Positions 678-31,706 of a stretch of DNA of 39,161 nucleotides are shown piece after piece. Position 1 is the first letter of the stretch. Each line of letters starts with the position of its first letter. The stretch lies in IMG/VR virus record IMGVR_UViG_2706794670_000014, one strand, 5' to 3'. Under the pieces are notes generated by a model, which saw only the letters and a list, made by a program, of their open reading frames with translations, had not been told where the DNA came from and searched no databases. A program made the translations under genes and the position numbers. Source of the DNA: a virus (lineage: Duplodnaviria > Heunggongvirae > Uroviricota > Caudoviricetes).

Positions 678-1415
678 TCATTCACTCTCTTTCAAACCAG
701 TTTTAACTGTTTGTGGTTTTGGGTAAGGCTGGACTTTGAATAGCTTTGTGTTAAGGCGTTTTCTGGCTCTCTTGTCCAGAAACCGGATGTAACGAAACTG
801 ACGGAATTTATGAACACTGGCTCTGTCGATATTAGCCCGCAGATGTTCACCTCGCTGTCCTCCTCGTTTGATTGCATTCTTGCAAATCTCGTGATACCAC
901 TCGCCATCAAGTTCATAGAATGTTGTTTCATGACTGCCTACATAATCAAAATTGCTTGCCTGGTACACGACACCAAGACAGCCACAACGCTCATCTGCAA
1001 ACGACTGAACCCACTGCACCTGCGGATAAAGTTGTCTGATTAGTTTGAGCGCGTAACTGATTGCCCTTGATTCGGAGTTTCTCGGCATACAGTCATGCAG
1101 CCATAACCGGTTAAGCTCCATATATTCGCGGTTCTGCGTGCCAGTTACGACGCGTGCACCATTGTTTGGATTAAGGGCATAACCCCATTGCATTACGCCA
1201 ACCAGCTCCCGTTCTGAAAATATGCCCAGATGAAGGTAGGAATTATTTACGAAACGATGGCTGTAATGTTTATTGACGACGACCAGCCGGGCCAGCCAGC
1301 AACTTATTGTCTCAACCCGTAACTCACGGGAGCCATAACCGACGATATTGTCGTTATAGTGAATAAGTTCAGGCGTGCTGATGATACGGGATGTAACTTG
1401 CTTTCTGTTCCCCAC
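678..1415 (-). CDS. mom: Mom-like DNA modification protein, assigned by position directly downstream of and overlapping com; start codon uncertain
   Basis: Long ORF 678..1610 in a different frame from com. Com's stop at 1369-1371 lies inside it, as in Mu where com overlaps the mom start. A GTG at 1415 preceded by AAGGAAA would give about 245 aa, close to the size I recall for Mu Mom. Confidence 0.55.
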
Positions 1416-1569
1416 GACAGGATTTCCTTGTGTATGTGGGGTGCTCTGTGGCGCTCTGAGATGTGATTTGATTGAGGGTTTTACAGCGCGGACATTTAAC
1501 TTCCAGATAACTGAAGCTGGCTCGTGCCAGTAGCTTGTTACAATGTCGGCACCGTATGTTTCGATACAT
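1369..1569 (-). CDS. com: Com-like zinc-finger translational activator of mom
   Basis: The translation from the ATG at 1569 contains [10 protein letters not shown]...EVKCPRCK, matching the Cys4 zinc-finger pattern of Mu Com. AGGAGG lies upstream. Confidence 0.75.
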
Positions 1570-6659: not shown

Positions 6660-7535
6660 TTATATACTTGCAGCCGTCACCCATGCTCCATTTAACAGAT
6701 ACTGCAACGGCCGGTAATACACGCCGCCGACGTTATCTGCCGTATTCTTACCGACATCCTGTACTTTAATTCCGGTAAGAACATTGCCGCCCCCCAGATT
6801 CAGATCCCAGCTTTCCCATGTTCCGGGCATATGTGCGGTCACCGACCCCAGTCTTATGGCGGTTACTGTTCCTGATGAGATAGTGNNNNNNNNNNNNNNN
6901 NNNNNNNNNNNNNNNNNNNNNNNNNNNNNNNNNNNNNNNNNNNNNNNNNNNNNNNNNNNNNNNNNNNNNNNNNNNNNNNNNNNNNNNNNNNNNNNNNNNN
7001 NNNNNNNNNNNNNNNNNNNNNNNNNNNNNNNNNNNNNNNNNNNNNNNNNNNNNNNNNNNNNNNNNNNNNNNNNNNNNNNNNNNNNNNNNNNNNNNNNNNN
7101 NNNNNNNNNNNNNNNNNNNNNNNNNNNNNNNNNNNCGGCGAGATTCTGATCCTTCGCCAGGGCATTAACGTCAGCGGGACCAAGACTGTTTTTTGTGGCA
7201 AGCGTCCCCAGACCAAGATAACCACGGGCCAGACGCTGGGCCTCCGCACCGGCATCAGCAATTTCTTTCAGGTTATTTTTCCGGGAAAAGGCATTCGCAG
7301 CGATAATGGCTTTAATGGACAGCGTAAGCTGGTTTAACTGCGCCTTATCCGGCTGAATACTGGCTTCAGCCAGAATATTCAGCAGTTCGGCCTGGAGAAT
7401 ATTCAGCCAGTCCTGACCAATCCAGCTGATACCTTTTTGTCCGTCACCTTCGGTAAACCAGGTGGTGGTATTACTCTGCGCCGGTGCCAGCGCAGGCATA
7501 TTCGCCACGCCGGAATTATTATCAACATGAAACAT
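6660..7535 (-). CDS. Tail fibre protein (Mu S-like, constant plus currently joined variable part); middle masked by N
   Basis: Position after the baseplate genes. C-terminal segment resembles fibre receptor-binding tips. N-run 6886-7135 lies inside the gene. Confidence 0.65.
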   Translation of the reverse strand: MFHVDNNSGVANMPALAPAQSNTTTWFTEGDGQKGISWIGQDWLNILQAELLNILAEASIQPDKAQLNQLTLSIKAIIAANAFSRKNNLKEIADAGAEAQRLARGYLGLGTLATKNSLGPADVNALAKDQNLAXXXXXXXXXXXXXXXXXXXXXXXXXXXXXXXXXXXXXXXXXXXXXXXXXXXXXXXXXXXXXXXXXXXXXXXXXXXXXXXXXXXXTISSGTVTAIRLGSVTAHMPGTWESWDLNLGGGNVLTGIKVQDVGKNTADNVGGVYYRPLQYLLNGAWVTAASI

Positions 7536-8095
7536 TAAATAGTCTCCTCTTCATGGCTGTTTGCATAAACGTAAATAAACGTCTGCCATGCAGGCTTATA
7601 ACGGTTCAGAATACATTCCAGCGCACCGCCTTCATAAATACGCAGCGGCGTGAGAATATCATCCAGCACATTCATATTCCGGTAGCCGGTTTCACTGTTA
7701 ATCGTGACAATACTGACCCACTGCGAATCCGGTGAGGGCTGAATGTCAATCTGATAACCAAACTCCGCCGCAAACCGGATATAAAATTCACGGTTCAGCG
7801 AGGGCTTCATCCGGTATTTATTTCCGGCATAACGCTGTCGCTCCGTGAGGGTGGCTCCGGCCATATCACACTCGGGAAGCCCGAGATAACGCTCCCAGTC
7901 TTCCAGCAGCAGGCGCGACGTGTCAGGGAAACGCTCGGCAAGCAGCTGTTTACCCGTCCAGGATACACGCGCTGTCGAATGACTGAGGCCCAGACATAAT
8001 GATGCCAGTACGGATGACGGACGCTTGTCCCATGCCAGCCCGTCAGGCAGTAACTGCAACAGGGCGCGCTGATGCGGGGTCAGGGTTACAGCCAT
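7535..8095 (-). CDS. Tail protein (Mu gp48-like, DUF2313-type)
   Basis: Size and position between the baseplate J-like gene and the tail fibre. Confidence 0.55.
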   Translation of the reverse strand: MAVTLTPHQRALLQLLPDGLAWDKRPSSVLASLCLGLSHSTARVSWTGKQLLAERFPDTSRLLLEDWERYLGLPECDMAGATLTERQRYAGNKYRMKPSLNREFYIRFAAEFGYQIDIQPSPDSQWVSIVTINSETGYRNMNVLDDILTPLRIYEGGALECILNRYKPAWQTFIYVYANSHEEETI

Positions 8096-9172
8096 GTGAT
8101 TTCTCCTACCGTCAGCAGCTCACTGTCTCCCGCCTGAACTGACGTCAGCGGACTGCGCACTTCAAAATCCTCCAGATTTTTCACCCCTGCCACCGCCCGC
8201 CAGAAAGACGACGGCAGAACCAGACCGCCGGGCCGGGATTCGTTATACAACAGGTCGGTCAGCGCCTGTTTTACGGCCGCCTGATTCTCCGGTGTTTTCG
8301 GGATGATCCTGATGCTGAAGGGCACCGGCTTATTGGTCAGTTTAAACACGGTCACCGTCGGCCCCAGAGGCTGTCCGACAGGCTGGCCGGTCGCCGGATC
8401 ATCATGACTGCGGATATAATCCGCCACCCGCTGAACATCACCGTCACCGGGGAAAATATCCGGGTTATTATCCTGAACAAACGTTACCCCCACGCTGCCC
8501 GCCTGCGGCCATTCCGGGCGGCACCATGCCCGCGTCACGCCCGGCACTTCACGCGCCCAGCGTTCAAANNNNNNNNNNNNNNNNNNNNNNNNNNNNNNNN
8601 NNNNNNNNNNNNNNNNNNNNNNNNNNNNNNNNNNNNNNNNNNNNNNNNNNNNNNNNNNNNNNNNNNNNNNNNNNNNNNNNNNNNNNNNNNNNNNNNNNNN
8701 NNNNNNNNNNNNNNNNNNNNNNNNNNNNNNNNNNNNNNNNNNNNNNNNNNNNNNNNNNNNNNNNNNNNNNNNNNNNNNNNNNNNNNNNNNNNNNNNNNNN
8801 NNNNNNNNNNNNNNNNNNGGTGATACGGTAAACCACGCCATCACTTCGCTGGAGAAGCACACCTTCCTTGATCCCCGCATCCGTGGTCAGCATCAGCTGA
8901 ACCGGCCCGTCCCCCCGAGAGGCAGGCTTACGCATGACGCCCCAGAATGCACAGTGTTTCAGCAGTTCGGCTTCATCGGCTTCGGTCGGGATGATCTGAC
9001 GCGCAATCCAGGCCAGATGCTCATGCTCCTGAGCAGATAACCCTGCCTGAGCGTAAGCAATGGCATTCAGGGTGGTTTCATTCACACCCGGCTGCGAGCC
9101 GGGCAGGCGCTGGCTGATATCCTGCTGTGTCTGCGTGATTAACTGTGCCAGCGGTAAAGGCTGATAAGGCAT
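8086..9172 (-). CDS. Baseplate J-like protein (Mu gp47-like); middle masked by N
   Basis: The N- and C-terminal ORF pieces flank the N-run 8569-8818. Both resemble Baseplate_J family proteins. Confidence 0.6.
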
Positions 9173-12752: not shown

Positions 12753-14714
12753 TCAGGGGCAACAAGCTCCACCCGNNNNNNNNNNNNNNNNNNNNNNNNN
12801 NNNNNNNNNNNNNNNNNNNNNNNNNNNNNNNNNNNNNNNNNNNNNNNNNNNNNNNNNNNNNNNNNNNNNNNNNNNNNNNNNNNNNNNNNNNNNNNNNNNN
12901 NNNNNNNNNNNNNNNNNNNNNNNNNNNNNNNNNNNNNNNNNNNNNNNNNNNNNNNNNNNNNNNNNNNNNNNNNNNNNNNNNNNNNNNNNNNNNNNNNNNN
13001 NNNNNNNNNNNNNNNNNNNNNNNNNACCGGCCCACAGGGCACCACCACCCAGCCGACCGGCACCACGGAACAGCCCGGCAAAACGCCCCAGCCCCATGCG
13101 GTTTCCGGCCGCCGTTAGCAGACCACCGGCACGGCTCATCATACGACCGAAGAAGCCCTGTTTACCGGCACTCTCCGCCAGTTGCTCACCGGCAGTCACG
13201 ACGGTCGTGACACCCCGTCCACGTCCGGGGCCGCGTTTTTTACGGCCGCGCACGGTTTTGCCGTCACCGCTGACCACCACATCCCCGCCACCTGAGGCCA
13301 GGCCACCCGCAGGCCAATTGGTGACCAGCACGGGCTGAACGGCAGCCGGATTTACCCCGGTAAGGAAATTCAGGAACCGGCCAGCGCGTCCGGGCTGCGT
13401 TCCCGGTACAGTGGTCTGCGGTTTGCGGAAGGGCGACGTCAGCACGGAGGTCATCGCCATGCCATAGCGTAAGGGGGTTGCGCCGAGACGTAATGCCCCC
13501 GTCCCCGCAAACCTGAGCACCTTCAGCGCACGGGAGGCGAGATACATATACATCAGGTACTTTGCGGCGGTCTGCGCACCCTGACCAATGCGATCCAGCG
13601 CATCGCCATAACCGGCGTCGCGCAGTGCCTGAAGCGTTTCCCTGACTTTCTGAATGACCCGGTAAAAGCCGGTCGCAGCGTCTCTGGCATACTCAAATCC
13701 CTGATTCAGGGCTGAGGCCGTCTGTGTGGCCAGCTTATCCTGTAAGCCGCTTTTCTGTGCCGCATCAGCATAATCCAGAAAGCCTTTCAGGCTCTTTTTC
13801 AGGCTGTCAAACGGTCCCTTTGCCATCACCTCGCGGGCAAATCCGTCCCAGACATCGCCCATCATGGACGTCATTCCCGTCCAGGAATTCATGGCGTTTT
13901 TCTGGGCACCTTTTGCCTGTTCGGCCATCACCTGAAATAACAGGCGAATGCTGTCCGGTCCCAGTTTTCCTTTCTCGCCTTTCTCACGGATGATCTTCTG
14001 GTTTACACCCAGCTTATCGGCCAGCAACTGGTAAACGTTAATCCCGTATCCGGTCAGAATATTGGCGTCCGCTGCCTGGATACTCTGGCGGGCAAACATC
14101 TGTTTGAGTTGCAGGGACGCACCCTGTGCATCTGACAGTGACCAGCCGTGATAGCCGCCCTGATCCTGAAGCATGGTAATAAAGCGACGGGCTTCCCTGT
14201 CACTCATACCGAACCCGCGACTGGAGGCGTATTCCTGCATAACCCCCGCCAGCCCCCAGGTGGTGTCTTTGGCGTTCTGTACCGCCCAGGCTTTCACTGC
14301 TTCCGTTTTTGCCGTATCGCCATGATTAATGGCGTTGAGACGCAGAATATAGTTCTCCATCTCTGCGGCCGGGCGGATAAAGGCTTTATTAAACCCGTAG
14401 ACCGCAGCCCCTCCCGCCAGCATCCCGTAAAGGTTGCTTATCCGCCCGATGGTGCCGGTAATGCTGCCCTGAAGGCGGTCAAAATCTGACGTCACCGTGC
14501 GGATACTGCCACGAACACCGGCAAGCGTTCGCTGCATACGGGAGCCGACAAGTTCTGTCTCCTGACCGGCACGACGTGCTGCATTTCCAAGACCACCCAG
14601 CCCCGTCCTGCCGGAACGGGAGAATGCCCCCAGCTCCTGTGACCACTGGCGGGATTTGGCAGAAATATTGCCGAGTAAATCGACAATCAGGGAGGCTTTC
14701 AGGTTTTTTGCCAT
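12753..14714 (-). CDS. Tail tape measure protein; C-terminal part masked by N
   Basis: Long Gly/Ala-rich ORF between the tail tube and baseplate genes. ATG at 14714. Confidence 0.7.
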   Translation of the reverse strand: MAKNLKASLIVDLLGNISAKSRQWSQELGAFSRSGRTGLGGLGNAARRAGQETELVGSRMQRTLAGVRGSIRTVTSDFDRLQGSITGTIGRISNLYGMLAGGAAVYGFNKAFIRPAAEMENYILRLNAINHGDTAKTEAVKAWAVQNAKDTTWGLAGVMQEYASSRGFGMSDREARRFITMLQDQGGYHGWSLSDAQGASLQLKQMFARQSIQAADANILTGYGINVYQLLADKLGVNQKIIREKGEKGKLGPDSIRLLFQVMAEQAKGAQKNAMNSWTGMTSMMGDVWDGFAREVMAKGPFDSLKKSLKGFLDYADAAQKSGLQDKLATQTASALNQGFEYARDAATGFYRVIQKVRETLQALRDAGYGDALDRIGQGAQTAAKYLMYMYLASRALKVLRFAGTGALRLGATPLRYGMAMTSVLTSPFRKPQTTVPGTQPGRAGRFLNFLTGVNPAAVQPVLVTNWPAGGLASGGGDVVVSGDGKTVRGRKKRGPGRGRGVTTVVTAGEQLAESAGKQGFFGRMMSRAGGLLTAAGNRMGLGRFAGLFRGAGRLGGGALWAGXXXXXXXXXXXXXXXXXXXXXXXXXXXXXXXXXXXXXXXXXXXXXXXXXXXXXXXXXXXXXXXXXXXXXXXXXXXXXXXXXXXXGGACCP

Positions 14715-17128: not shown

Positions 17129-17417
17129 NNNNNNNNNNNNNNNNNNNNNNNNNNNNNNNNNNNNNNNNNNNNNNNNNNNNNNNNNNNNNNNNNNNNNNNN
17201 NNNNNNNNNNNNNNNNNNNNNNNNNNNNNNNNNNNNNNNNNNNNNNNNNNNNNNNNNNNNNNNNNNNNNNNNNNNNNNNNNNNNNNNNNNNNNNNNNNNN
17301 NNNNNNNNNNNNNNNNNNNNNNNNNNNNNNNNNNNNNNNNNNNNNNNNNNNNNNNNNNNNNNNNNNNNNNNNNNNNNNCAGGCATCCCGGCGCAGGTTTA
17401 ATAAAAATGGTTGTCAT
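17129..17417 (-). CDS. 5' end of a gene with a strong RBS (either the sheath N-terminus or a separate small gp38-like gene); body masked
   Basis: ATG at 17417 with GAGGAA upstream. Its frame differs from the sheath ORF across the N-run, so continuity cannot be decided. Confidence 0.3.
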
Positions 17418-17984: not shown

Positions 17985-18682
17985 ATAAAGCCCTTCTGGT
18001 TGCGCCCGAACACCGCCGCATCAGACTGCACCTGCGGTAAATCCCCGGATTCAGGGGCCGCACCGTCTGTATCCACGCCGACCGGCACGTTACCGTTCAT
18101 GACATCTTTCAGCCAGGCCAGCGCCTCACGGTAACGGTCACGCGCCTGATCGGATGCCCGCTGATCGCACAGGTAATAAAAGGCAATCGTGCAGCAATGC
18201 TGAACAAGGACCGCCGGAACCACCGCCAGCGGCAGCGTGTAACGGGAAGACAGATAGCTGTCGATAAGGGCAGACGCGTCCGTCAGTGCCCGGTTCAGCT
18301 TGCGCGTGTCCGGTTCATCCGAACGGGGCACGGCCAGTAATGGCCTGAGCAAATCCTCGCGGTAACGTGCCCGCATATCGGTTTCGGTGGNNNNNNNNNN
18401 NNNNNNNNNNNNNNNNNNNNNNNNNNNNNNNNNNNNNNNNNNNNNNNNNNNNNNNNNNNNNNNNNNNNNNNNNNNNNNNNNNNNNNNNNNNNNNNNNNNN
18501 NNNNNNNNNNNNNNNNNNNNNNNNNNNNNNNNNNNNNNNNNNNNNNNNNNNNNNNNNNNNNNNNNNNNNNNNNNNNNNNNNNNNNNNNNNNNNNNNNNNN
18601 NNNNNNNNNNNNNNNNNNNNNNNNNNNNNNNNNNNNNNNNNNNNNCAGGAACCCCGCACGACGAAAATGCGTACGACTGCAA
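17981..18682 (-). CDS. Mu gp36-like protein (DUF1320-type); N-terminus masked
   Basis: The C-terminal 130 aa are visible. N-run 18391-18645 covers the start. Confidence 0.45.
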   Translation of the reverse strand: MQSYAFSSCGVPXXXXXXXXXXXXXXXXXXXXXXXXXXXXXXXXXXXXXXXXXXXXXXXXXXXXXXXXXXXXXXXXXXXXXXXXXXXXXXXXXXXXXXTETDMRARYREDLLRPLLAVPRSDEPDTRKLNRALTDASALIDSYLSSRYTLPLAVVPAVLVQHCCTIAFYYLCDQRASDQARDRYREALAWLKDVMNGNVPVGVDTDGAAPESGDLPQVQSDAAVFGRNQKGFI

Positions 18683-21667: not shown

Positions 21668-22999
21668 TTAATCAATTTGTCCTTCCAGCACCTCAAGCAT
21701 TCCGCCCCGGATATCCGATTTCAGCTTATCCATATTGATAACCCGGTAAGCATTCACAATCACATCCAGTTTGTCGGGCTGACGTTTCAGACTGTACGGT
21801 GCATTAACGGCAATCTGCACACTGCCATCCTGATTTTCCACGATATACATCAGATTGTTGTGCCGTTTGTCCCACAGTACCGCTTTTGGCCTTGCCAGCA
21901 TTGCCGGTAAGCGCCCGAAGTCCTCCGGCGTCAGAGCGATGCCGTCATTCTGATGTTTCACACTGTCCGCATGGAGCACATTTTTACCGCTCATCGCCAG
22001 CAGGCGGGCCGGTGGCGTTCCCGTCCGGCTTTCCACTGCCTGCGCAATGCTTTCAGTCATAAAGCCCAGCGTGCGGATATCGTTACCACCTCGCCGGGTC
22101 TGCATGATGTTTTTTGCCCAGATGCGGAACGCCAGCTGCCGCTCCGGGCTGTTGTTCATCTCCTGAACCACCATTTCCCGTAACGCCGGGCTTTTCACCT
22201 CGATCAGTTTGCGGATCAGCGCCTGGTCTGTGCCGAACGCTGCCGAGCCGGGGTTATATGACCAGCCCACATCCGGTGTCATGGTTCTGGCGCCATCTGA
22301 ATATGTGGTCACCGGCATTTCTCTGACTTCTCCGGTCTGTTTATCCACGCCAGCCTCAACATTGCGGGTGGAGAGATGATCCTCACCGGATGAAACGGAT
22401 AACCCCATTGCATCCAGACGGGCCTGAGACAATGGCCGCACACGGCAGCGGCAGTTCCAGCCATTGGGCGNNNNNNNNNNNNNNNNNNNNNNNNNNNNNN
22501 NNNNNNNNNNNNNNNNNNNNNNNNNNNNNNNNNNNNNNNNNNNNNNNNNNNNNNNNNNNNNNNNNNNNNNNNNNNNNNNNNNNNNNNNNNNNNNNNNNNN
22601 NNNNNNNNNNNNNNNNNNNNNNNNNNNNNNNNNNNNNNNNNNNNNNNNNNNNNNNNNNNNNNNNNNNNNNNNNNNNNNNNNNNNNNNNNNNNNNNNNNNN
22701 NNNNNNNNNNNNNNNNNNNNCTGCTTTCCCCACCATCCCAGCTTTTGCAGGCGTGGCGTCAGTGTGCGGATAAATTCTTTCTGTGAAATCCCCTCATCAA
22801 TGGCCCGCTGCACTTCGGCCTGTAATGTGGTTACCACATCCAGCCGTGCCGTTTTTGCTGCCGTGAATGAGCGGGCATGAACATCCGCGTCTGTTTCGAA
22901 CCAGTTCCAGCTGATATGCGCCCCTTTGGCGCGGAAGTATGCCACCGTCTCTTTTGAGGGAAGCGTGGCGGCATAACCTAAATCAATCCCCTGAGCCAT
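21668..22999 (-). CDS. Head morphogenesis protein (Mu F / SPP1 gp7 family); middle masked
   Basis: NGWNCRCR motif typical of this family. Position after the portal gene. Confidence 0.75.
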   Translation of the reverse strand: MAQGIDLGYAATLPSKETVAYFRAKGAHISWNWFETDADVHARSFTAAKTARLDVVTTLQAEVQRAIDEGISQKEFIRTLTPRLQKLGWWGKQXXXXXXXXXXXXXXXXXXXXXXXXXXXXXXXXXXXXXXXXXXXXXXXXXXXXXXXXXXXXXXXXXXXXXXXXXXXXXXXXXXXXPNGWNCRCRVRPLSQARLDAMGLSVSSGEDHLSTRNVEAGVDKQTGEVREMPVTTYSDGARTMTPDVGWSYNPGSAAFGTDQALIRKLIEVKSPALREMVVQEMNNSPERQLAFRIWAKNIMQTRRGGNDIRTLGFMTESIAQAVESRTGTPPARLLAMSGKNVLHADSVKHQNDGIALTPEDFGRLPAMLARPKAVLWDKRHNNLMYIVENQDGSVQIAVNAPYSLKRQPDKLDVIVNAYRVINMDKLKSDIRGGMLEVLEGQID

Positions 23000-24556
23000 C
23001 CAGCATCCCCTTCATTTCCGCAGCAAACATGGCATCACTGAGCAGCGTCATCAGGCGGGAATCATCCATTTCACGGTAAAGGGCAGGCAGGTCTGCCAGT
23101 GCCTCCGCCAGCCCCCGCGTTCTGATGACATCAATGACCGGCTCCAGCACCGGATCGATGGCCTCCTGTAAGCGGCGGGCAGGCACCGCGTCCCCCATGT
23201 CGTCCAGTTCATCACGCGGCGTGTTTTTCGCTTCCGGCAGTCGGGCTGAAAGCGCCGTCTGTTCTGTCTTTTCCTGTTTTTCCGGTAGCGTTTCCCTGTC
23301 AGGCATGGCCGGTTCATTACTGCTCTGACGGACACGGAATATGGCTTCACCGGGCGTGGGCTGTGGAATACCGGTCTGATCCCGTACCCAGGGATCAGGA
23401 ATATCCATCCCCGCACTGAGTTGCATCACCGCACTGGCTATTTTGGTGATATCCCCCGGTTCTTTGGTCTGGAAACAGATACGCGGCAGGCGACGGATAT
23501 CAATGGCGTGGGCGGTGTTCAGGGCATACAGCGGATACACCAGATCGCGGTTCAGGGTTGCAGCCAGCTGGCGTAAATCAGAATCCCTGATTTCCCGGCG
23601 CACCTCGTTATGCACCTCACCCAGCGAGCGCGCGCCTTTGTCTCCGGCTTCTGTGGTCAGCGTGCCGCCGANNNNNNNNNNNNNNNNNNNNNNNNNNNNN
23701 NNNNNNNNNNNNNNNNNNNNNNNNNNNNNNNNNNNNNNNNNNNNNNNNNNNNNNNNNNNNNNNNNNNNNNNNNNNNNNNNNNNNNNNNNNNNNNNNNNNN
23801 NNNNNNNNNNNNNNNNNNNNNNNNNNNNNNNNNNNNNNNNNNNNNNNNNNNNNNNNNNNNNNNNNNNNNNNNNNNNNNNNNNNNNNNNNNNNNNNNNNNN
23901 NNNNNNNNNNNNNNNNNNNNNGGCCAGATAAGCGTTCTGACAAGCCCCGTCGCACCACCGTAGCCGGTGCGTGAACGCGACTGATGCACTATCCAGCCAA
24001 AGGGCTGAAACGCCACCCCGGCATGGCTGCCGTCACGCAGCCGCAGTTCGCTCAAATCATCCGGGTTAAGGCAGAAATGCCCGCTGTCACGCCAGCGGAT
24101 GGCGCGGATGATGTGCATTTTACCGAGCATCCCGTGCTCAATTTCCATGCAGGAATAGCCCTTCAGGATGGCATCCGTGGCGTCAAACAGCATGGCATCA
24201 AACCAGTCTGCGGAATGCAGATATTCGTCGAGCATTTCCGCGTCCTTTTTCTCATTCGCGCTGGCGTTCGGTGGCGGCTCAATACTCCATGGCACCCCCT
24301 GAATGGCAAGACGTCGCTTGCCCAGCTCCGCAAAAAGGTGGGTGTCCTTTTCTTCAATATCAGCGGCCAGATCGGACTGGGCAATCAGATCGCCACGTTC
24401 AGCCCCGCGAAGGCACTGCGCCGCCCGGTTCGGGGTGATACCCGAAGCCGGATGTTCAATATAACGGCTGGCAATCTGCGGAATATCCAGCGCGGCACTC
24501 TGCATCTCCGGGTCAAAGGAGAAAGGTTTTCCGTCAGTATCAATGATGCGTCCCAC
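22983..24556 (-). CDS. Portal protein (Mu gp29-like); middle masked, frame across the mask not resolved
   Basis: N- and C-terminal portal-like pieces are both open into the N-run 23672-23921. Combined length of about 524 aa matches Mu portal size. Confidence 0.65.
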
Positions 24557-27875: not shown

Positions 27876-28433
27876 TTACTTCGTCTTTCCTGCCGGAACA
27901 GCAGTCGNNNNNNNNNNNNNNNNNNNNNNNNNNNNNNNNNNNNNNNNNNNNNNNNNNNNNNNNNNNNNNNNNNNNNNNNNNNNNNNNNNNNNNNNNNNNN
28001 NNNNNNNNNNNNNNNNNNNNNNNNNNNNNNNNNNNNNNNNNNNNNNNNNNNNNNNNNNNNNNNNNNNNNNNNNNNNNNNNNNNNNNNNNNNNNNNNNNNN
28101 NNNNNNNNNNNNNNNNNNNNNNNNNNNNNNNNNNNNNNNNNNNNNNNNNNNNNNNNNNNNNNNNNNNNNNNNNNNNNNNNGCACCGTTGCCAGTGACCGG
28201 CGGACAATGCTCTGCTGTTCCTCGCTGTGCTGCATGTTCTGCTGTTTTTCATTCGTGGCCGCCTTGCTGATTTGTGAAATGAGTTGCAGGGTGCGTTGCT
28301 GGTTTGCCAGCACCAGACGGGCTTCGTCCCGTTCACGCACAAGCACATGATTATTGTCCTCAAGGCGCTGCGTCTTCTGGTGCATTCCCCATACCACGGC
28401 AGCCAGCACGCTCATCACCCCCAGCGCCGCCAT
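27876..28433 (-). CDS. i-spanin-like protein (Rz-like); C-terminal part masked
   Basis: ATG at 28433 with GGAGG upstream. N-terminal transmembrane helix AALGVMSVLAAVVWG followed by a coiled-coil-like sequence, downstream of the endolysin. Confidence 0.45.
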   Translation of the reverse strand: MAALGVMSVLAAVVWGMHQKTQRLEDNNHVLVRERDEARLVLANQQRTLQLISQISKAATNEKQQNMQHSEEQQSIVRRSLATVXXXXXXXXXXXXXXXXXXXXXXXXXXXXXXXXXXXXXXXXXXXXXXXXXXXXXXXXXXXXXXXXXXXXXXXXXXXXXXXXXXXXXXXXXXXXTAVPAGKTK

Positions 28434-28545: not shown

Positions 28546-29046
28546 TCAGACTTTCGGCAAATCGTAACGACATAACCATTCATCCGCCGAACGGCGGGCC
28601 TCAAGACCGGGGAGTTTTACCCCCTTTGAATAAATCCAGCGGATATACTGCTTACAGGACGCGGGCATCTGCCCGGCATTGATAAGGCGCAGGAGCGTGG
28701 AGTTGCGAAAGTTCGTTTCACCGGCCCAGAAAATCCAGGAGGCCAGCGCCACCGTCTGACCACGGGTAAGCGGCACCTGAACATGACGATCGATAGCCGC
28801 AAAGGCCCATTTCATGTCCTTTTCCAGCAGCTCCAGACACTCTTCATCAGTTTTTGTCATCCCCGGTTTCACATCCGGGCCGGTATGGCCGTAACAGATG
28901 GTGGGGGTGCCGGTGGGATCAATGTACGTGGTGTTTTCTTTCCCTTCCCAGTAGCCGGTGTAGTGCGTGGCAATGGTGAACGTCCCGGCTCCGGCCAGAA
29001 CAAGGGCAATCAGCTTTTTACGCAGGGGTGCGGGGAGTTTTGGCAT
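28546..29046 (-). CDS. SAR endolysin (lysozyme with an N-terminal signal-arrest-release domain)
   Basis: N-terminal hydrophobic LIALVLAGAGTFTIA followed by a lysozyme-like catalytic region (YIDPTGTPTICYGHT). Confidence 0.8.
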   Translation of the reverse strand: MPKLPAPLRKKLIALVLAGAGTFTIATHYTGYWEGKENTTYIDPTGTPTICYGHTGPDVKPGMTKTDEECLELLEKDMKWAFAAIDRHVQVPLTRGQTVALASWIFWAGETNFRNSTLLRLINAGQMPASCKQYIRWIYSKGVKLPGLEARRSADEWLCRYDLPKV

Positions 29047-29527
29047 TGTTACGCTGTCTCATGGTGTTCTCTGAGTCAGCGTAACCGTGAGGAAAAGGGG
29101 GCAGGANNNNNNNNNNNNNNNNNNNNNNNNNNNNNNNNNNNNNNNNNNNNNNNNNNNNNNNNNNNNNNNNNNNNNNNNNNNNNNNNNNNNNNNNNNNNNN
29201 NNNNNNNNNNNNNNNNNNNNNNNNNNNNNNNNNNNNNNNNNNNNNNNNNNNNNNNNNNNNNNNNNNNNNNNNNNNNNNNNNNNNNNNNNNNNNNNNNNNN
29301 NNNNNNNNNNNNNNNNNNNNNNNNNNNNNNNNNNNNNNNNNNNNNNNNNNNNNNNNAGCAGGTTCAATCCCCTGACGGTGCAGTTCAGCACTGATCACAT
29401 CAACCAGGTCCCGCAGCGTGCCGGGCCAGTTCTTTTTCAGCTCATCATCAGGAATATCATCCAGACGGTCAATCAGCGCGTGCAGCTGTTCGCTGTCACC
29501 AAACATGCTCATCTGTGTTTCAGCCAT
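29018..29527 (-). CDS. Mor/C-family transcription activator (N-terminus visible, remainder masked; true stop unresolved)
   Basis: The N-terminal 57 aa resemble the Mor N-terminal dimerisation region. N-run 29107-29356 covers the rest, so the ORF-track end is not reliable. Confidence 0.5.
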   Translation of the reverse strand: MAETQMSMFGDSEQLHALIDRLDDIPDDELKKNWPGTLRDLVDVISAELHRQGIEPAXXXXXXXXXXXXXXXXXXXXXXXXXXXXXXXXXXXXXXXXXXXXXXXXXXXXXXXXXXXXXXXXXXXXXXXXXXXXXXXXXXXXLPPFPHGYADSENTMRQRNNAKTPRTPA

Positions 29528-29597
29528 ACCCGCCTCCGGTCATCATTACACAGGGCAAGTTTAAAATAAAAATCCCGCGCTGTGGCGGGATTTGGGG

Positions 29598-30110
29598 TTA
29601 ACGGGGGAATGATTTTTCATACAGCCTGCAAACACGCTCATAACTCATCACTGCACGTTCCGACATATCCAGGGCTGCCAGCATTTTGCGGCGGTGCCAG
29701 CGTTTGAGACGCTCCAGCACATCAGAGGCCAGCGCGGGTTGTTGCTCCAGCCACTGCCAGTTAGCCACACCTTCGCCGTCGTTCTGCGCGGCCGTCTGCG
29801 ATTTCACCCAGCGGTTAAGGGCCGTTTCCCCGCCATCAGAGATAAATCCCTGCCGGTGCATCACTTTCCAGATGGCGCGAATTTTGGCGGTCACCGTACC
29901 CGGTTTTAAGGCCCGGTTAACCGGCTTCTGACGCACTTTAAAACCGCGTTTTTTGAAAACATCCAGCACGCGGGATAACTCACCGGGTGACATATCACGG
30001 CAACTGGATTTGCCGGTGGCTGCCAGCAGCGCGGATGTATAGGTATCATGGTCAAGCTGTAGATCGCGTTTTGCGACATGTATTAAGGTAATCAGGGAAG
30101 CGCGATTCAT
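29598..30110 (-). CDS. GemA-like early protein (Mu gp16-like)
   Basis: 170 aa immediately upstream of the Mor-like gene, as gemA is in Mu. Confidence 0.5.
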   Translation of the reverse strand: MNRASLITLIHVAKRDLQLDHDTYTSALLAATGKSSCRDMSPGELSRVLDVFKKRGFKVRQKPVNRALKPGTVTAKIRAIWKVMHRQGFISDGGETALNRWVKSQTAAQNDGEGVANWQWLEQQPALASDVLERLKRWHRRKMLAALDMSERAVMSYERVCRLYEKSFPR

Positions 30111-30122
30111 TATCGTGGCTCC

Positions 30123-30152
30123 ATAAAAAATGGGCGGTGTTACCGCACCGCC
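30123..30152 (-). terminator. Rho-independent terminator on the minus strand, 13 nt upstream of the gemA-like start
   Basis: Stem GGCGGTG / CACCGCC with a 6-nt loop, followed on the minus strand by TTTTTTAT. Confidence 0.5.
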
Positions 30153-30180
30153 ATGTCAATTAACATAAAAGGAAAAATCT

Positions 30181-30420
30181 ATGTCAGATATAAAAAATGC
30201 ACTTGATGTTGCCGCATTCACAATGGCTGGAAATCTTATGGTAACCCTGTTCGATAAGGGGCTGATTTCCCGTGAGGAGGCAATACATATTATCAATCTC
30301 GCTCAAAAAAACTCTACCCCGGAAAATGCAGAAGATATCCAGGATGGCTCATATATTAATACCGACTGGCATTTCGACAATCTCCGGGCCTGTATGGGGA
30401 TTACCGCTGAAAAAGATTAA
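30181..30420 (+). CDS. Hypothetical 79-aa protein in the AT-rich cassette, oriented opposite to the early operon
   Basis: ATG at 30181 with AAGGAAAAA RBS and an upstream TAACAT -10-like hexamer. Its 3' end overlaps the convergent 95-aa gene by 20 bp. Confidence 0.5.
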   Translation: MSDIKNALDVAAFTMAGNLMVTLFDKGLISREEAIHIINLAQKNSTPENAEDIQDGSYINTDWHFDNLRACMGITAEKD

Positions 30421-30688
30421 AAATTTTTGCATAATGTTCAGATGTAAGAATTGCTGAACCATCAACACCGAGCCTACGGCGAACGTATTCCTCGCGGGCT
30501 ATTTTATTATCCAGAGATACAGCATCCTTAATCAGGTTAATCTCCCGCTCCATTATCAAAAGGGCTTCTCTGGCTGCAAGATTTTCTTTTATCGCATATT
30601 CGATAATGTCCCGCATACGTTCAAGCATGCCGATTTTAGCCAGTTCTTCGTCGATAGATTTAGGCGCAAATTTGATTTCTTTTTCCAT
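30401..30688 (-). CDS. Hypothetical 95-aa helical protein in the AT-rich cassette
   Basis: ATG at 30688 lies one nt after the TAA of the upstream zinc-ribbon ORF, suggesting translational coupling. The ORF track starts it 15 nt earlier. Confidence 0.5.
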   Translation of the reverse strand: MEKEIKFAPKSIDEELAKIGMLERMRDIIEYAIKENLAAREALLIMEREINLIKDAVSLDNKIAREEYVRRRLGVDGSAILTSEHYAKIFNLFQR

Positions 30689-30689
30689 A

Positions 30690-30833
30690 TTATTCATCCT
30701 CACAATTTATACATGCAGTGTCGTCGCCCATATCGCAGTGGTTACATTTTATCTCACCACAATGTGGGCACTCTTTCAGATACTCCGGGTCCTCATTTCC
30801 ACAGGTGGGACATTCAACAATTTGCTCATCCAT
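30690..30833 (-). CDS. 47-aa double zinc-ribbon protein with eight cysteines (absent from the ORF track because it is under 60 aa)
   Basis: Translation MDEQIVECPTCGNEDPEYLKECPHCGEIKCNHCDMGDDTACINCEDE has four CxxC pairs. Its start overlaps the stop of the upstream 110-aa gene. Confidence 0.45.
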   Translation of the reverse strand: MDEQIVECPTCGNEDPEYLKECPHCGEIKCNHCDMGDDTACINCEDE

Positions 30834-31158
30834 TATGTATCCCCTGTAATTCCGGCAAGGCCGAAAGATGGCACCAGTGCGTCACCTGTCCGTCCTCATC
30901 TTCAAGGCAGGCTCCGGTTTCTTCATCAATAAAAAAGCCTTCATACCCCATATGGCCGATGCGCAGTTCCTGTTGGTCACCATACTGAACAATCAGCACG
31001 ACAGCCTCCATATCAGGCGGAAATGCGTCATCCAGTGAATGCCAGGGATAACCGCGCAAATCCCCGAAATAAACGCCGGTCAGCGTTCCGCCACAGAGCG
31101 GCATTCCGGCGGCACACACAAGAGGTTCATCTGATTCAACAAATAAGGTCGTTATCAT
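30826..31158 (-). CDS. Hypothetical 110-aa acidic protein
   Basis: ATG at 31158 overlaps the stop of the upstream gene (ATGA). Confidence 0.45.
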   Translation of the reverse strand: MITTLFVESDEPLVCAAGMPLCGGTLTGVYFGDLRGYPWHSLDDAFPPDMEAVVLIVQYGDQQELRIGHMGYEGFFIDEETGACLEDEDGQVTHWCHLSALPELQGIHNG

Positions 31159-31706
31159 GGCGTTAACTCCCGTAATACAGCGTCCTCGGCAGTCCGGCGA
31201 CGGTAATAAACTGCGTGAGCAGAATGTTCAGATATTCCAAACTTTTCGCCAATTTCCCGGAATGACAGACGGCGTGGGTAATCGGAATCACGCAGCTCAC
31301 GTATAAGACGTACATCATCATCAGATATGCGCGTGCCGGGGCGTAACTCTCCGCACTTTGTTAATCCAGCACCAATCATTCCTGCCCGACATCTGACAGA
31401 ATCTTTATTACGTCCGAGATATTCTCCCATTTGCTGGCAGGTCATTGTTCTGGCATTTTTTCGAATAAACTTATCTTCATCAGGTGTAAATCTTGGGTGT
31501 TTATATTTCAGTAACTCCGGGTATGAACTGCGCAATACACCAGTCCGGTTATATACAGCCCAGACAGTTCTTTTTATTCTGGCAGCAATATCCTTAACCG
31601 GGGTGGATGAATAAAGCGCAATCAGCAGCGCATCTTCTTCAGGTGTCCACGGACGGACATGAGCGGGGGCGCGACCTTTTAGTCCCATGGGTTGTAATTT
31701 CATCAT
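31155..31706 (-). CDS. DNA-binding protein with three tandem HTH-like repeats; the C-terminal repeat resembles the Mor/C-family HTH
   Basis: Repeats RPWTPEEDALLIALY..., PRFTPDEDKFIRKNA..., TRISDDDVRLIRELR...LSFREIGEKFGISEHSAHAVYYRRR. Confidence 0.5.
   Translation of the reverse strand: MMKLQPMGLKGRAPAHVRPWTPEEDALLIALYSSTPVKDIAARIKRTVWAVYNRTGVLRSSYPELLKYKHPRFTPDEDKFIRKNARTMTCQQMGEYLGRNKDSVRCRAGMIGAGLTKCGELRPGTRISDDDVRLIRELRDSDYPRRLSFREIGEKFGISEHSAHAVYYRRRTAEDAVLRELTP

Follow-up and report, generated by a model that had tools for sequence, protein, structure and literature searches.

This locus raises the question of whether an AT-rich stretch inside the early operon of a Mu-like prophage is foreign cargo or an ordinary part of the Mu early region. 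The stretch lies at positions 30123..30840 of a 39,161-nucleotide virus sequence (IMG/VR record IMGVR_UViG_2706794670_000014, Caudoviricetes), which is referred to as a whole as the window. The window is an Escherichia coli Mu-like prophage, with 100% identity to E. coli 600029 across the tested 2.9 kb, and four more complete genomes are near-identical to it. An original prediction, made from the sequence alone, described three open reading frames (ORFs) in this stretch: a zinc-ribbon ORF (zn47; 30690..30833, minus strand), an ORF for a 95-amino acid helical protein (orf95; 30401..30688, minus strand), and a plus-strand ORF for 79 amino acids (orf79; 30181..30420). These positions, the 20-bp convergent overlap of the last two ORFs, and the single nucleotide between the zinc-ribbon stop and the following ATG were all confirmed. 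The prediction also recognized none of the three as a Mu early protein, and named the placing of the proteins in known early-gene families as an outcome that would speak against a separately acquired cassette. Searches gave exactly that outcome: zn47 corresponds to Mu gp13 (E14) and orf95 to Mu gp14 (E15), in the same position, and homologues of orf79 occur at the same site in Mu. The stretch is therefore probably the form that the last module of the Mu semi-essential early region takes in this prophage, mosaic and dispensable, and not foreign cargo. What looked like an exotic cassette is the usual gp13-gp14 end of the Mu early region, and should not count as a new defense or toxin-antitoxin island.

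The Mu semi-essential early region has been described as a poorly conserved run of small uncharacterized genes (PMC8705779; PMC4553209). The zn47 protein has 47 amino acids, is acidic (isoelectric point (pI) 4.05), and contains four CxxC pairs. In tblastn searches of sequenced phages it matched Mu positions 7528..7650 with 87.8% identity over residues 7-47 (E=7e-17), and in PHROG it matched phrog_5584 (E=3e-26, profile positions 20-60). The Mu record places Mu_13 (formerly E14, 60 amino acids; AAF01090.1) at 7471..7653, so the match is not full length: zn47 has 47 residues against 60, with only residues 7-47 aligned. The four-CxxC core is 88% identical to that of Mu gp13 and D108 gene 13, the cysteines align with those of Mu gp13, and 8/8 cysteines are kept in five diverged copies. 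Like gp13, zn47 lies on the early strand of the semi-essential region directly upstream of a gp14 gene, but it has a shortened N terminus, without the approximately 19-residue N-terminal segment of the Mu protein, and is preceded by orf110 and not by gp12. The start of zn47 overlaps the stop of orf110 by 8 nucleotides (ATGGATGA), and a Shine-Dalgarno sequence, GGGGA, is found upstream. The original prediction had pointed out that zn47 was missing from its list of ORFs, and RefSeq likewise leaves it unannotated.

The second early-strand gene, orf95, is annotated in RefSeq (WP_000409993.1) in the 95-amino acid form starting with ATG, while the ORF list gives a 100-amino acid form starting with GTG. 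The tblastn match to Mu 7655..7936 has 48.9% identity over residues 1-94 (E=5e-21), and phrog_6075 is matched over residues 1-95 (E=5e-44). In the Mu record, Mu_14 (formerly E15, 100 amino acids; AAF01091.1) lies at 7655..7957, adjacent to Mu_13, and gemA then begins at 8233. Identity to Mu gp14 and D108 gene 14 is 49-56% over almost the full length, with 22 invariant columns; the approximately 20 C-terminal residues of orf95 are unlike those of Mu gp14 because this part overlaps another type of reverse-strand gene. The AlphaFold2 model of orf95 is a confident helical protein (predicted local distance difference test score (pLDDT) 87). As in Mu, no further early-strand gene separates orf95 from the gemA leader, and a reverse-strand gene overlaps the 3' end of orf95. 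The stop of zn47 and the ATG of orf95 are arranged as TAA-T-ATG, with a gap of 1 nucleotide, and the junction between Mu gp13 and gp14 is identical. Equivalents of both genes were also found by tblastn in D108, SfMu, Mu_3F6, and Yersinia Mu-like phages. Judged by sequence, zn47 and orf95 are homologues of Mu gp13 and gp14, in the same order, with the same junction, and just upstream of gemA. The 8-nucleotide overlap with orf110 and the 1-nucleotide gap before orf95 fit read-through translation from a long early transcript, and gp13 and gp14 would be non-essential early accessory proteins translated from that transcript.

Base composition had been taken in the original prediction as a sign of separately acquired DNA. 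The drop itself is clear: the GC content of 30123..30840 is 41.2% versus 53.4% for the window with masked runs excluded, only 3.3% of N-free 718-nucleotide windows are equally low (mean 0.527, standard deviation 0.052), and the flanking genes are richer in GC (gemA, 54.6%; orf110, 51.4%). The same module is also GC-poor in Mu (0.455-0.475 versus 0.553 for gemA) and in D108 (0.42-0.475 versus 0.536 for gemA); the lower GC content is therefore no evidence of foreign cargo. The GC profile of the window has artificial dips because of nine masked runs of N, each of 250-273 nucleotides (6886-7135, 8569-8818, 12776-13025, 17129-17378, 18391-18645, 22471-22720, 23672-23921, 27908-28180, and 29107-29356); one falls inside mor and none overlaps the module.

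The third gene, orf79 (RefSeq WP_001280088.1), points in the repressor direction, converges on orf95 with a 20-nucleotide 3' overlap, and encodes an acidic protein (pI 4.5) that matches phrog_32893 (E=1e-45). A Shine-Dalgarno sequence, AAGGA, can be read at 30169..30173 (plus strand), 7 nucleotides before the ATG. The AlphaFold2 model is a helical hairpin with a tail, of moderate confidence (pLDDT 70.7; helices 2-25, 31-45, and 61-71). In five diverged copies of the module all three ORFs stay open, and the changes favor third codon positions. A tblastn search of sequenced phages with orf79 found one phage record only. The interval between gp14 and gemA holds reverse-strand ORFs that are unannotated in the reference sequences of both Mu (88 amino acids; AF083977.1 7896..8162 complement, corresponding to locus L011 1597..1863, minus strand) and D108 (119 amino acids; GQ357916.1 7853..8212 complement, corresponding to locus L013 1554..1913, minus strand). 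Annotated equivalents are SfMu_16 (AIY32315.1, 88 amino acids) and VUD37876.1 of Mu_3F6 (119 amino acids). An old record of the Mu left end lists a putative reverse ORF, "F-134," at the site of the Mu reverse ORF.

Similarity between orf79 and these ORFs can be followed through intermediates. By BLASTP, orf79 matches the reverse ORFs of locus L041 (36% identity over 63 amino acids, E=5e-13), locus L043 (E=1e-7), and D108 (E=2e-6 to 1.5e-5), and the Mu/SfMu reverse ORF is matched in turn by L041 (E=4e-9) and by L043 (41% identity, E=1e-22); a targeted profile comparison with the reverse ORFs of Mu, D108, SfMu, and Mu_3F6 gave E=1e-5. A profile search of all ORFs of at least 40 amino acids in 16 loci gave matches confined to reverse ORFs. 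In PHROGs, phrog_32893 was matched by 7/7 types tested, and the family is split there into 32893, 38610, and 8747. An exhaustive HMMER search of 1.84 billion representative proteins found only about ten small relatives, which have in common an N-terminal motif (FD.AAF.LAGN.L..L..KG.LS..EA) and a C-terminal motif (DWHLDNL); two large proteins from the same search were set aside, as they matched only through unrelated repeats. The N-terminal helical-hairpin motif of the family is present in orf79. One relative occurs frequently in Klebsiella michiganensis and other Enterobacteriaceae, and the Klebsiella and metagenomic contexts have the identical architecture, with a gp14 homologue and a hairpin. 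The reverse ORFs of Mu and D108, SfMu_16, and VUD37876.1 (phrog_8747 and phrog_38610) resemble orf79 in strand, position, and N-terminal helical-hairpin domain, but identity is only about 20-36%, and the central linker and C-terminal tail differ. The DWHFDNL motif of the window type is common to the Klebsiella-type relatives and does not occur in the Mu/SfMu type.

The position of the reverse gene is more constant than its sequence. In 9/9 sequence types it starts 69-73 bp from the gemA start codon, on the strand opposite the early operon, and its 3' end runs 4-98 nucleotides into the 3' end of the gp14 homologue; every type has a Shine-Dalgarno sequence 5-8 nucleotides before the ATG. The reference Mu sequence annotates a 55-amino acid ORF on the forward strand here (Mu_54, 7960..8127), and D108 annotates nothing. 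In a six-frame all-against-all comparison of the intervals, reverse frames gave the two best matches between types (window-D108, 5.8e-6; D108-L028, 5.7e-4), and nothing in the other types corresponded to Mu_54. One weaker forward-frame match, between the window and Mu (23 bits, E=0.003), lies outside the frame of Mu_54 and probably reflects the reverse-frame similarity as an antisense shadow. On its early strand, the window has no ATG-started ORF in the interval between gp14 and gemA. Mu_54 is probably spurious, with the conserved gene on the opposite strand. By these comparisons, orf79 is a real gene and a member of a small, fast-diverging reverse-strand family present in Mu, SfMu, D108, and Mu-like prophages of E. 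coli and Klebsiella. The original prediction was right to treat the plus-strand ORF as a gene in the repressor direction.

The start codons of gemA and orf79 diverge from a spacer of 70 bp (30111..30180), which shows 0 differences in five copies whose gemA genes differ by 8-9%; the spacing of 69-73 bp is kept in Mu, D108, L028, and the loci Klebsiella L065 and L068. On the minus strand, the gemA Shine-Dalgarno sequence is directly preceded by a GC-rich hairpin (30133..30152; GGCGGTG-N6-CACCGCC) with a T-run after it. A terminator scan gave 7 pairs, 6 of them GC, with the tail CATTTTTTAT, and the hairpin with its T-run scores as a terminator in the window and in Citrobacter. The stem is also found in Mu, D108, L028, L043, L065, and L068, as well as in L036, which is without the reverse gene, and in L002 there is a compensatory change from T-A to C-G. 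The presence of the hairpin in L036 and the compensatory change in L002 indicate that it is part of the gemA leader and not of the cassette; its interpretation as a cassette-specific terminator was dropped, since it is conserved in loci without the reverse gene. The "semi-early promoter" of the Mu record (8151..8217) spans the spacer, and the hairpin, which may serve as an attenuator, an operator, or a stabilizer of RNA, falls inside it. A second terminator-like hairpin lies between gemA and mor (29570..29593, minus strand), so that two hairpins bracket gemA. In E. coli 2012EL-2448 (L070 398..1095) the insertion sequence IS1A is inserted in the 70-bp spacer; IS1A parts gemA-mor from the early operon, and this prophage is therefore probably defective.

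The module is unevenly distributed. Among approximately 232 E. coli genomes that carry a prophage of this type, only 13-14 have it; in the rest, the slot is taken by unrelated small genes, with orf110 found in every alternative version. In one copy the cassette and spacer are 100% identical to those of the window beside a gemA that is only 92% identical, and recombinational exchange is therefore indicated. The reverse gene is carried by a clean 223-bp indel flanked by TGAT, present in L032 and absent from L036, and it is also absent from vB_YpM_3; insertion polymorphism between collinear phages, as expected of a moron, is thus observed. The frameshifted versions of orf79 in the databases likewise fit a dispensable gene. 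The slot can also be filled by a DUF2513-like gene in the same reverse orientation, as in E. coli TOE17 (L002 1276..1686, plus strand) and Citrobacter braakii (L044 approximately 1019..1429, minus strand), where this gene lies immediately upstream of the gemA hairpin and converges on the early gene before it. DUF2513 was considered as a homologue of orf79 and rejected, with no Pfam match in support. The gp13 gene is not always present alongside gp14 and the reverse gene. A GemA-anchored search of genome contigs found 20 loci of other species, 19 of them long enough to scan, and gp13, gp14, and the reverse gene occurred in 0/19; the pair of gp14 and the reverse gene is therefore taken to be restricted to enterobacterial Mu-type elements. 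A profile search of genome contigs with the gp14 alignment gave no loci. The suggestion in the original prediction that the cassette is swapped among related prophages thus stands with respect to its mosaic occurrence, but not in the sense that its genes are foreign to Mu.

No function was obtained for any of the three proteins from the family, defense, or structure searches. The small size of the proteins, their acidic or helical character, and their lack of an enzymatic or DNA-binding signature suggest that all three would be non-essential accessory proteins acting by protein-protein contacts. Transcription of the reverse gene would probably begin in the control region of gemA and lead away from it, without depending on the early promoter. 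The resulting RNA would be antisense to the last part of the early operon, directly ahead of gemA-mor, and collide with it there; the encoded protein may act with or against gp14, modulate read-through into gemA-mor, or both. The preferred reading, which is offered tentatively, sees in the reverse gene a modulator of lysogeny or of the entry phase that works together with gp14 or against it. A more specific and rather doubtful proposal is that the reverse gene, including the Mu 7896..8162 complement, is an unrecognized Mu-family gene expressed from the "semi-early" control region of gemA independently of the early promoter and functionally paired with gp14. Paired in this way, it could antagonize gp14 or gate read-through into gemA-mor, with effects on immunity, lysogeny stability, or superinfection, and it could even match a phenotype of the semi-essential region never assigned to an ORF, such as cim.

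Several results weigh against this overall explanation of the stretch. No significant Pfam, NCBIfam, or PADLOC family was found for orf79, orf95, or zn47, only generic zinc-ribbon matches below the cut-off, and Foldseek comparison of the orf79 and orf95 models with the PDB gave best E values of 0.5 and 3.6, which are non-specific. Of the signals ascribed to orf79 in the original prediction, its own ribosome-binding site stands (AAGGA, 7 nucleotides before the ATG), but the promoter-like hexamer does not: consensus scans, which leave atypical promoters possible, found no sigma-70-like promoter for orf79 in the 70-bp spacer, nor any for the reverse gene in the other types, and none at a conserved position across them. 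The only sigma-70-like match is a weak one (9/12), 131 nucleotides upstream and inside gemA, and promoter-like sites in the region are no commoner than in shuffled sequence. The 223-bp indel leaves only 13 nucleotides before the ATG of the reverse gene, which is no room for a promoter, and the terminator scan found no plus-strand terminator downstream of orf79. Reference Mu and D108 leave the reverse gene unannotated, with Mu_54 annotated on the opposite strand in Mu. Variation within the type is too low for clear purifying selection (8 synonymous-only versus 16 amino acid-changing codons), and when orf79 is clustered at 90% identity, about half of the clusters are singletons with a frameshift. 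The frameshifts fall after residue 43-53 at no fewer than four different sites, with loss of the conserved C-terminal DWHFDNL motif; an A7 homopolymer (30305..30311, plus strand) is the frameshift site in some database variants, with P0007 and P0008 changing frame after QK at this run and P0005, P0009, and P0010 at other sites. These variants could be due to prophage decay or assembly errors.

Some of the same observations could mean that orf79 is not a gene, being a chance ORF or an antisense shadow of early-strand sequence; this explanation draws on the missing promoter, the weak constraint within the type, the frameshifted variants, and the lack of annotation in reference Mu and D108. It is very improbable: no fewer than 9-10 diverged types score significantly in pairwise and profile comparisons and have two conserved motifs in common, a Shine-Dalgarno sequence is always present, and the model has an ordered helical hairpin. 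The strongest cross-type matches are in reverse frames, the weaker forward match (E=0.003) falls on no annotated ORF, and there is no consistent early-strand ORF at this site, the window having none with an ATG and Mu_54 being without counterparts. An effect mainly at the level of RNA or transcription is also unlikely, if less so. Convergent transcription from the gemA control region would here attenuate or silence read-through of the early operon into gemA-mor, stabilizing lysogeny or timing the switch from early to middle expression, and the peptide would be secondary. The constant position right before gemA-mor with an obligatory overlap of the gp14 3' end (4-98 nucleotides, 9/9 types), the invariant spacer with its conserved hairpin, and the "semi-early promoter" of the Mu record across the spacer (8151..8217) are consistent with such an effect. 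However, types with diverged DNA still have two protein motifs in common, at 30-40% identity, and together with the universal Shine-Dalgarno sequence this argues for selection on the protein itself; moreover, L036 and vB_YpM_3 keep the spacer and gemA without the insert, and no promoter was identified.

The original idea of a separately acquired cassette, or moron, giving the lysogen defense, superinfection exclusion, or a toxin-antitoxin function must be weighed against the same data. It is favored by the GC content (41%, in the lowest 3.3% of windows), the presence of the module in only 13-14 of approximately 232 genomes, the identity of the cassette where the flanks are 92% identical, the other reverse-oriented DUF2513-like genes in the slot of E. 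coli L002 and Citrobacter L044, and the position of the reverse gene within a clean indel. Nevertheless it is quite unlikely, because zn47 and orf95 are Mu gp13 and gp14 at their native site, orf79 also occurs in Mu, SfMu, and D108, and the low GC content is common to the module of Mu and D108. The promoter and terminator of its own that a moron would have were not found in the consensus scans, which leave atypical promoters possible. PADLOC, Pfam, and NCBIfam gave no match for the module or the alternative slot genes, and with this and the convergent layout, the defense and toxin-antitoxin ideas find no support. A type II toxin-antitoxin pair was rejected, as the genes are convergent and not co-directional as in such operons, and no toxin or antitoxin domains were found in Pfam or NCBIfam. 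In PADLOC-DB, zero families were found for orf79, orf95, zn47, and orf110, and the alternative slot genes had no PADLOC match save one that was not significant. A Pfam scan of all members of the reverse family found no common family, no match with an E value below 0.27 was obtained when PDB sequences were searched with the profile of that family, and an Rfam search gave no meaningful match. In the literature on Mu gp13, gp14, and gp15, antisense transcripts, SfMu_16, and DUF2513, no functional information was found.

A precedent for the opposite-strand arrangement is the Mu-like Pseudomonas phage Fc02, whose olg1 and gene 10 are likewise small overlapping genes on opposite strands near a control region of a transposable phage. 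Transcription in the lysogen occurs for one of the two, and both confer superinfection exclusion (PMC9936078). They lie beside the repressor and ner, and not beside gemA, and are likened to orf79 by arrangement, with no homology claimed; by analogy, Fc02 indicates how an opposite-strand arrangement with orf79 could work. The lead that results from this analysis is that Mu itself has, between gp14 and gemA and on the strand of the repressor, a conserved protein-coding gene omitted from the reference annotation of Mu and D108; this overlooked gene is the only moderately novel point. Because Mu is an established model phage whose genetics are easy to work with, the reverse gene, its pairing with gp14, and the hairpin are directly testable. 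Accessory genes in reverse orientation, whether of the reverse family or DUF2513-like, recur in the slot just upstream of the gemA hairpin, and this slot is thus a useful place to seek functions expressed from the prophage.

For zn47, membership of the Lar restriction-alleviation proteins was considered. Lar-type zinc ribbons are also small phage or prophage proteins, but zn47 scores far under the cut-offs (PF14354, 11.3 bits versus 28.6; TIGR03655, 12 bits versus 39.6) and is therefore not a member. The only non-Mu phage with a relative of zn47 is Klebsiella phage Kpn BU9 (L064 2501..2653; 55% identity, 50-amino acid gene). The gene lies there just upstream of an exonuclease, a Gp2.5-like protein that anneals single-stranded DNA, and a DNA polymerase, a context that suggests, though not decisively, a link of the zn47 relative to DNA metabolism.

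On the minus strand of the window, the order from early to late is transposase, Gam, gp11 (PF25754), gp12, a Myb/SANT protein, orf110, the gp13-gp14 module, gemA, mor, and lysozyme. The downstream neighbor that anchors the module is gemA (29598..30110, minus strand), which has a Pfam GemA match (PF06252, E=1.8e-28) and is called a "gp16 family protein" in RefSeq. Upstream, the conserved neighbor orf110 (30826..31158, minus strand; phrog_6925, E=2e-51) is translationally coupled to zn47 and encodes a very acidic protein (pI 4.05) with a weak DUF551-like match. In Mu, gp13 directly follows gp12, whereas in the window two extra early genes lie between them (30826..31706, minus strand): orf110 and a gene for a 183-amino acid protein with Myb/SANT and helix-turn-helix domains (phrog_323, "transcriptional regulator, D5-like"). 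A different pair of genes is found between mor and gemA in E. coli STEC1587 (L005 734..1391), one of 140 amino acids in the repressor direction and one of 78 amino acids in the early direction, neither with a Pfam or PADLOC match. In the window the lysozyme gene directly follows mor (28546..29527, minus strand), without the separate C gene and gp18-gp20 block of Mu, and the same mor-lysozyme layout has been reported for other Mu-like phages (PMC4553209).

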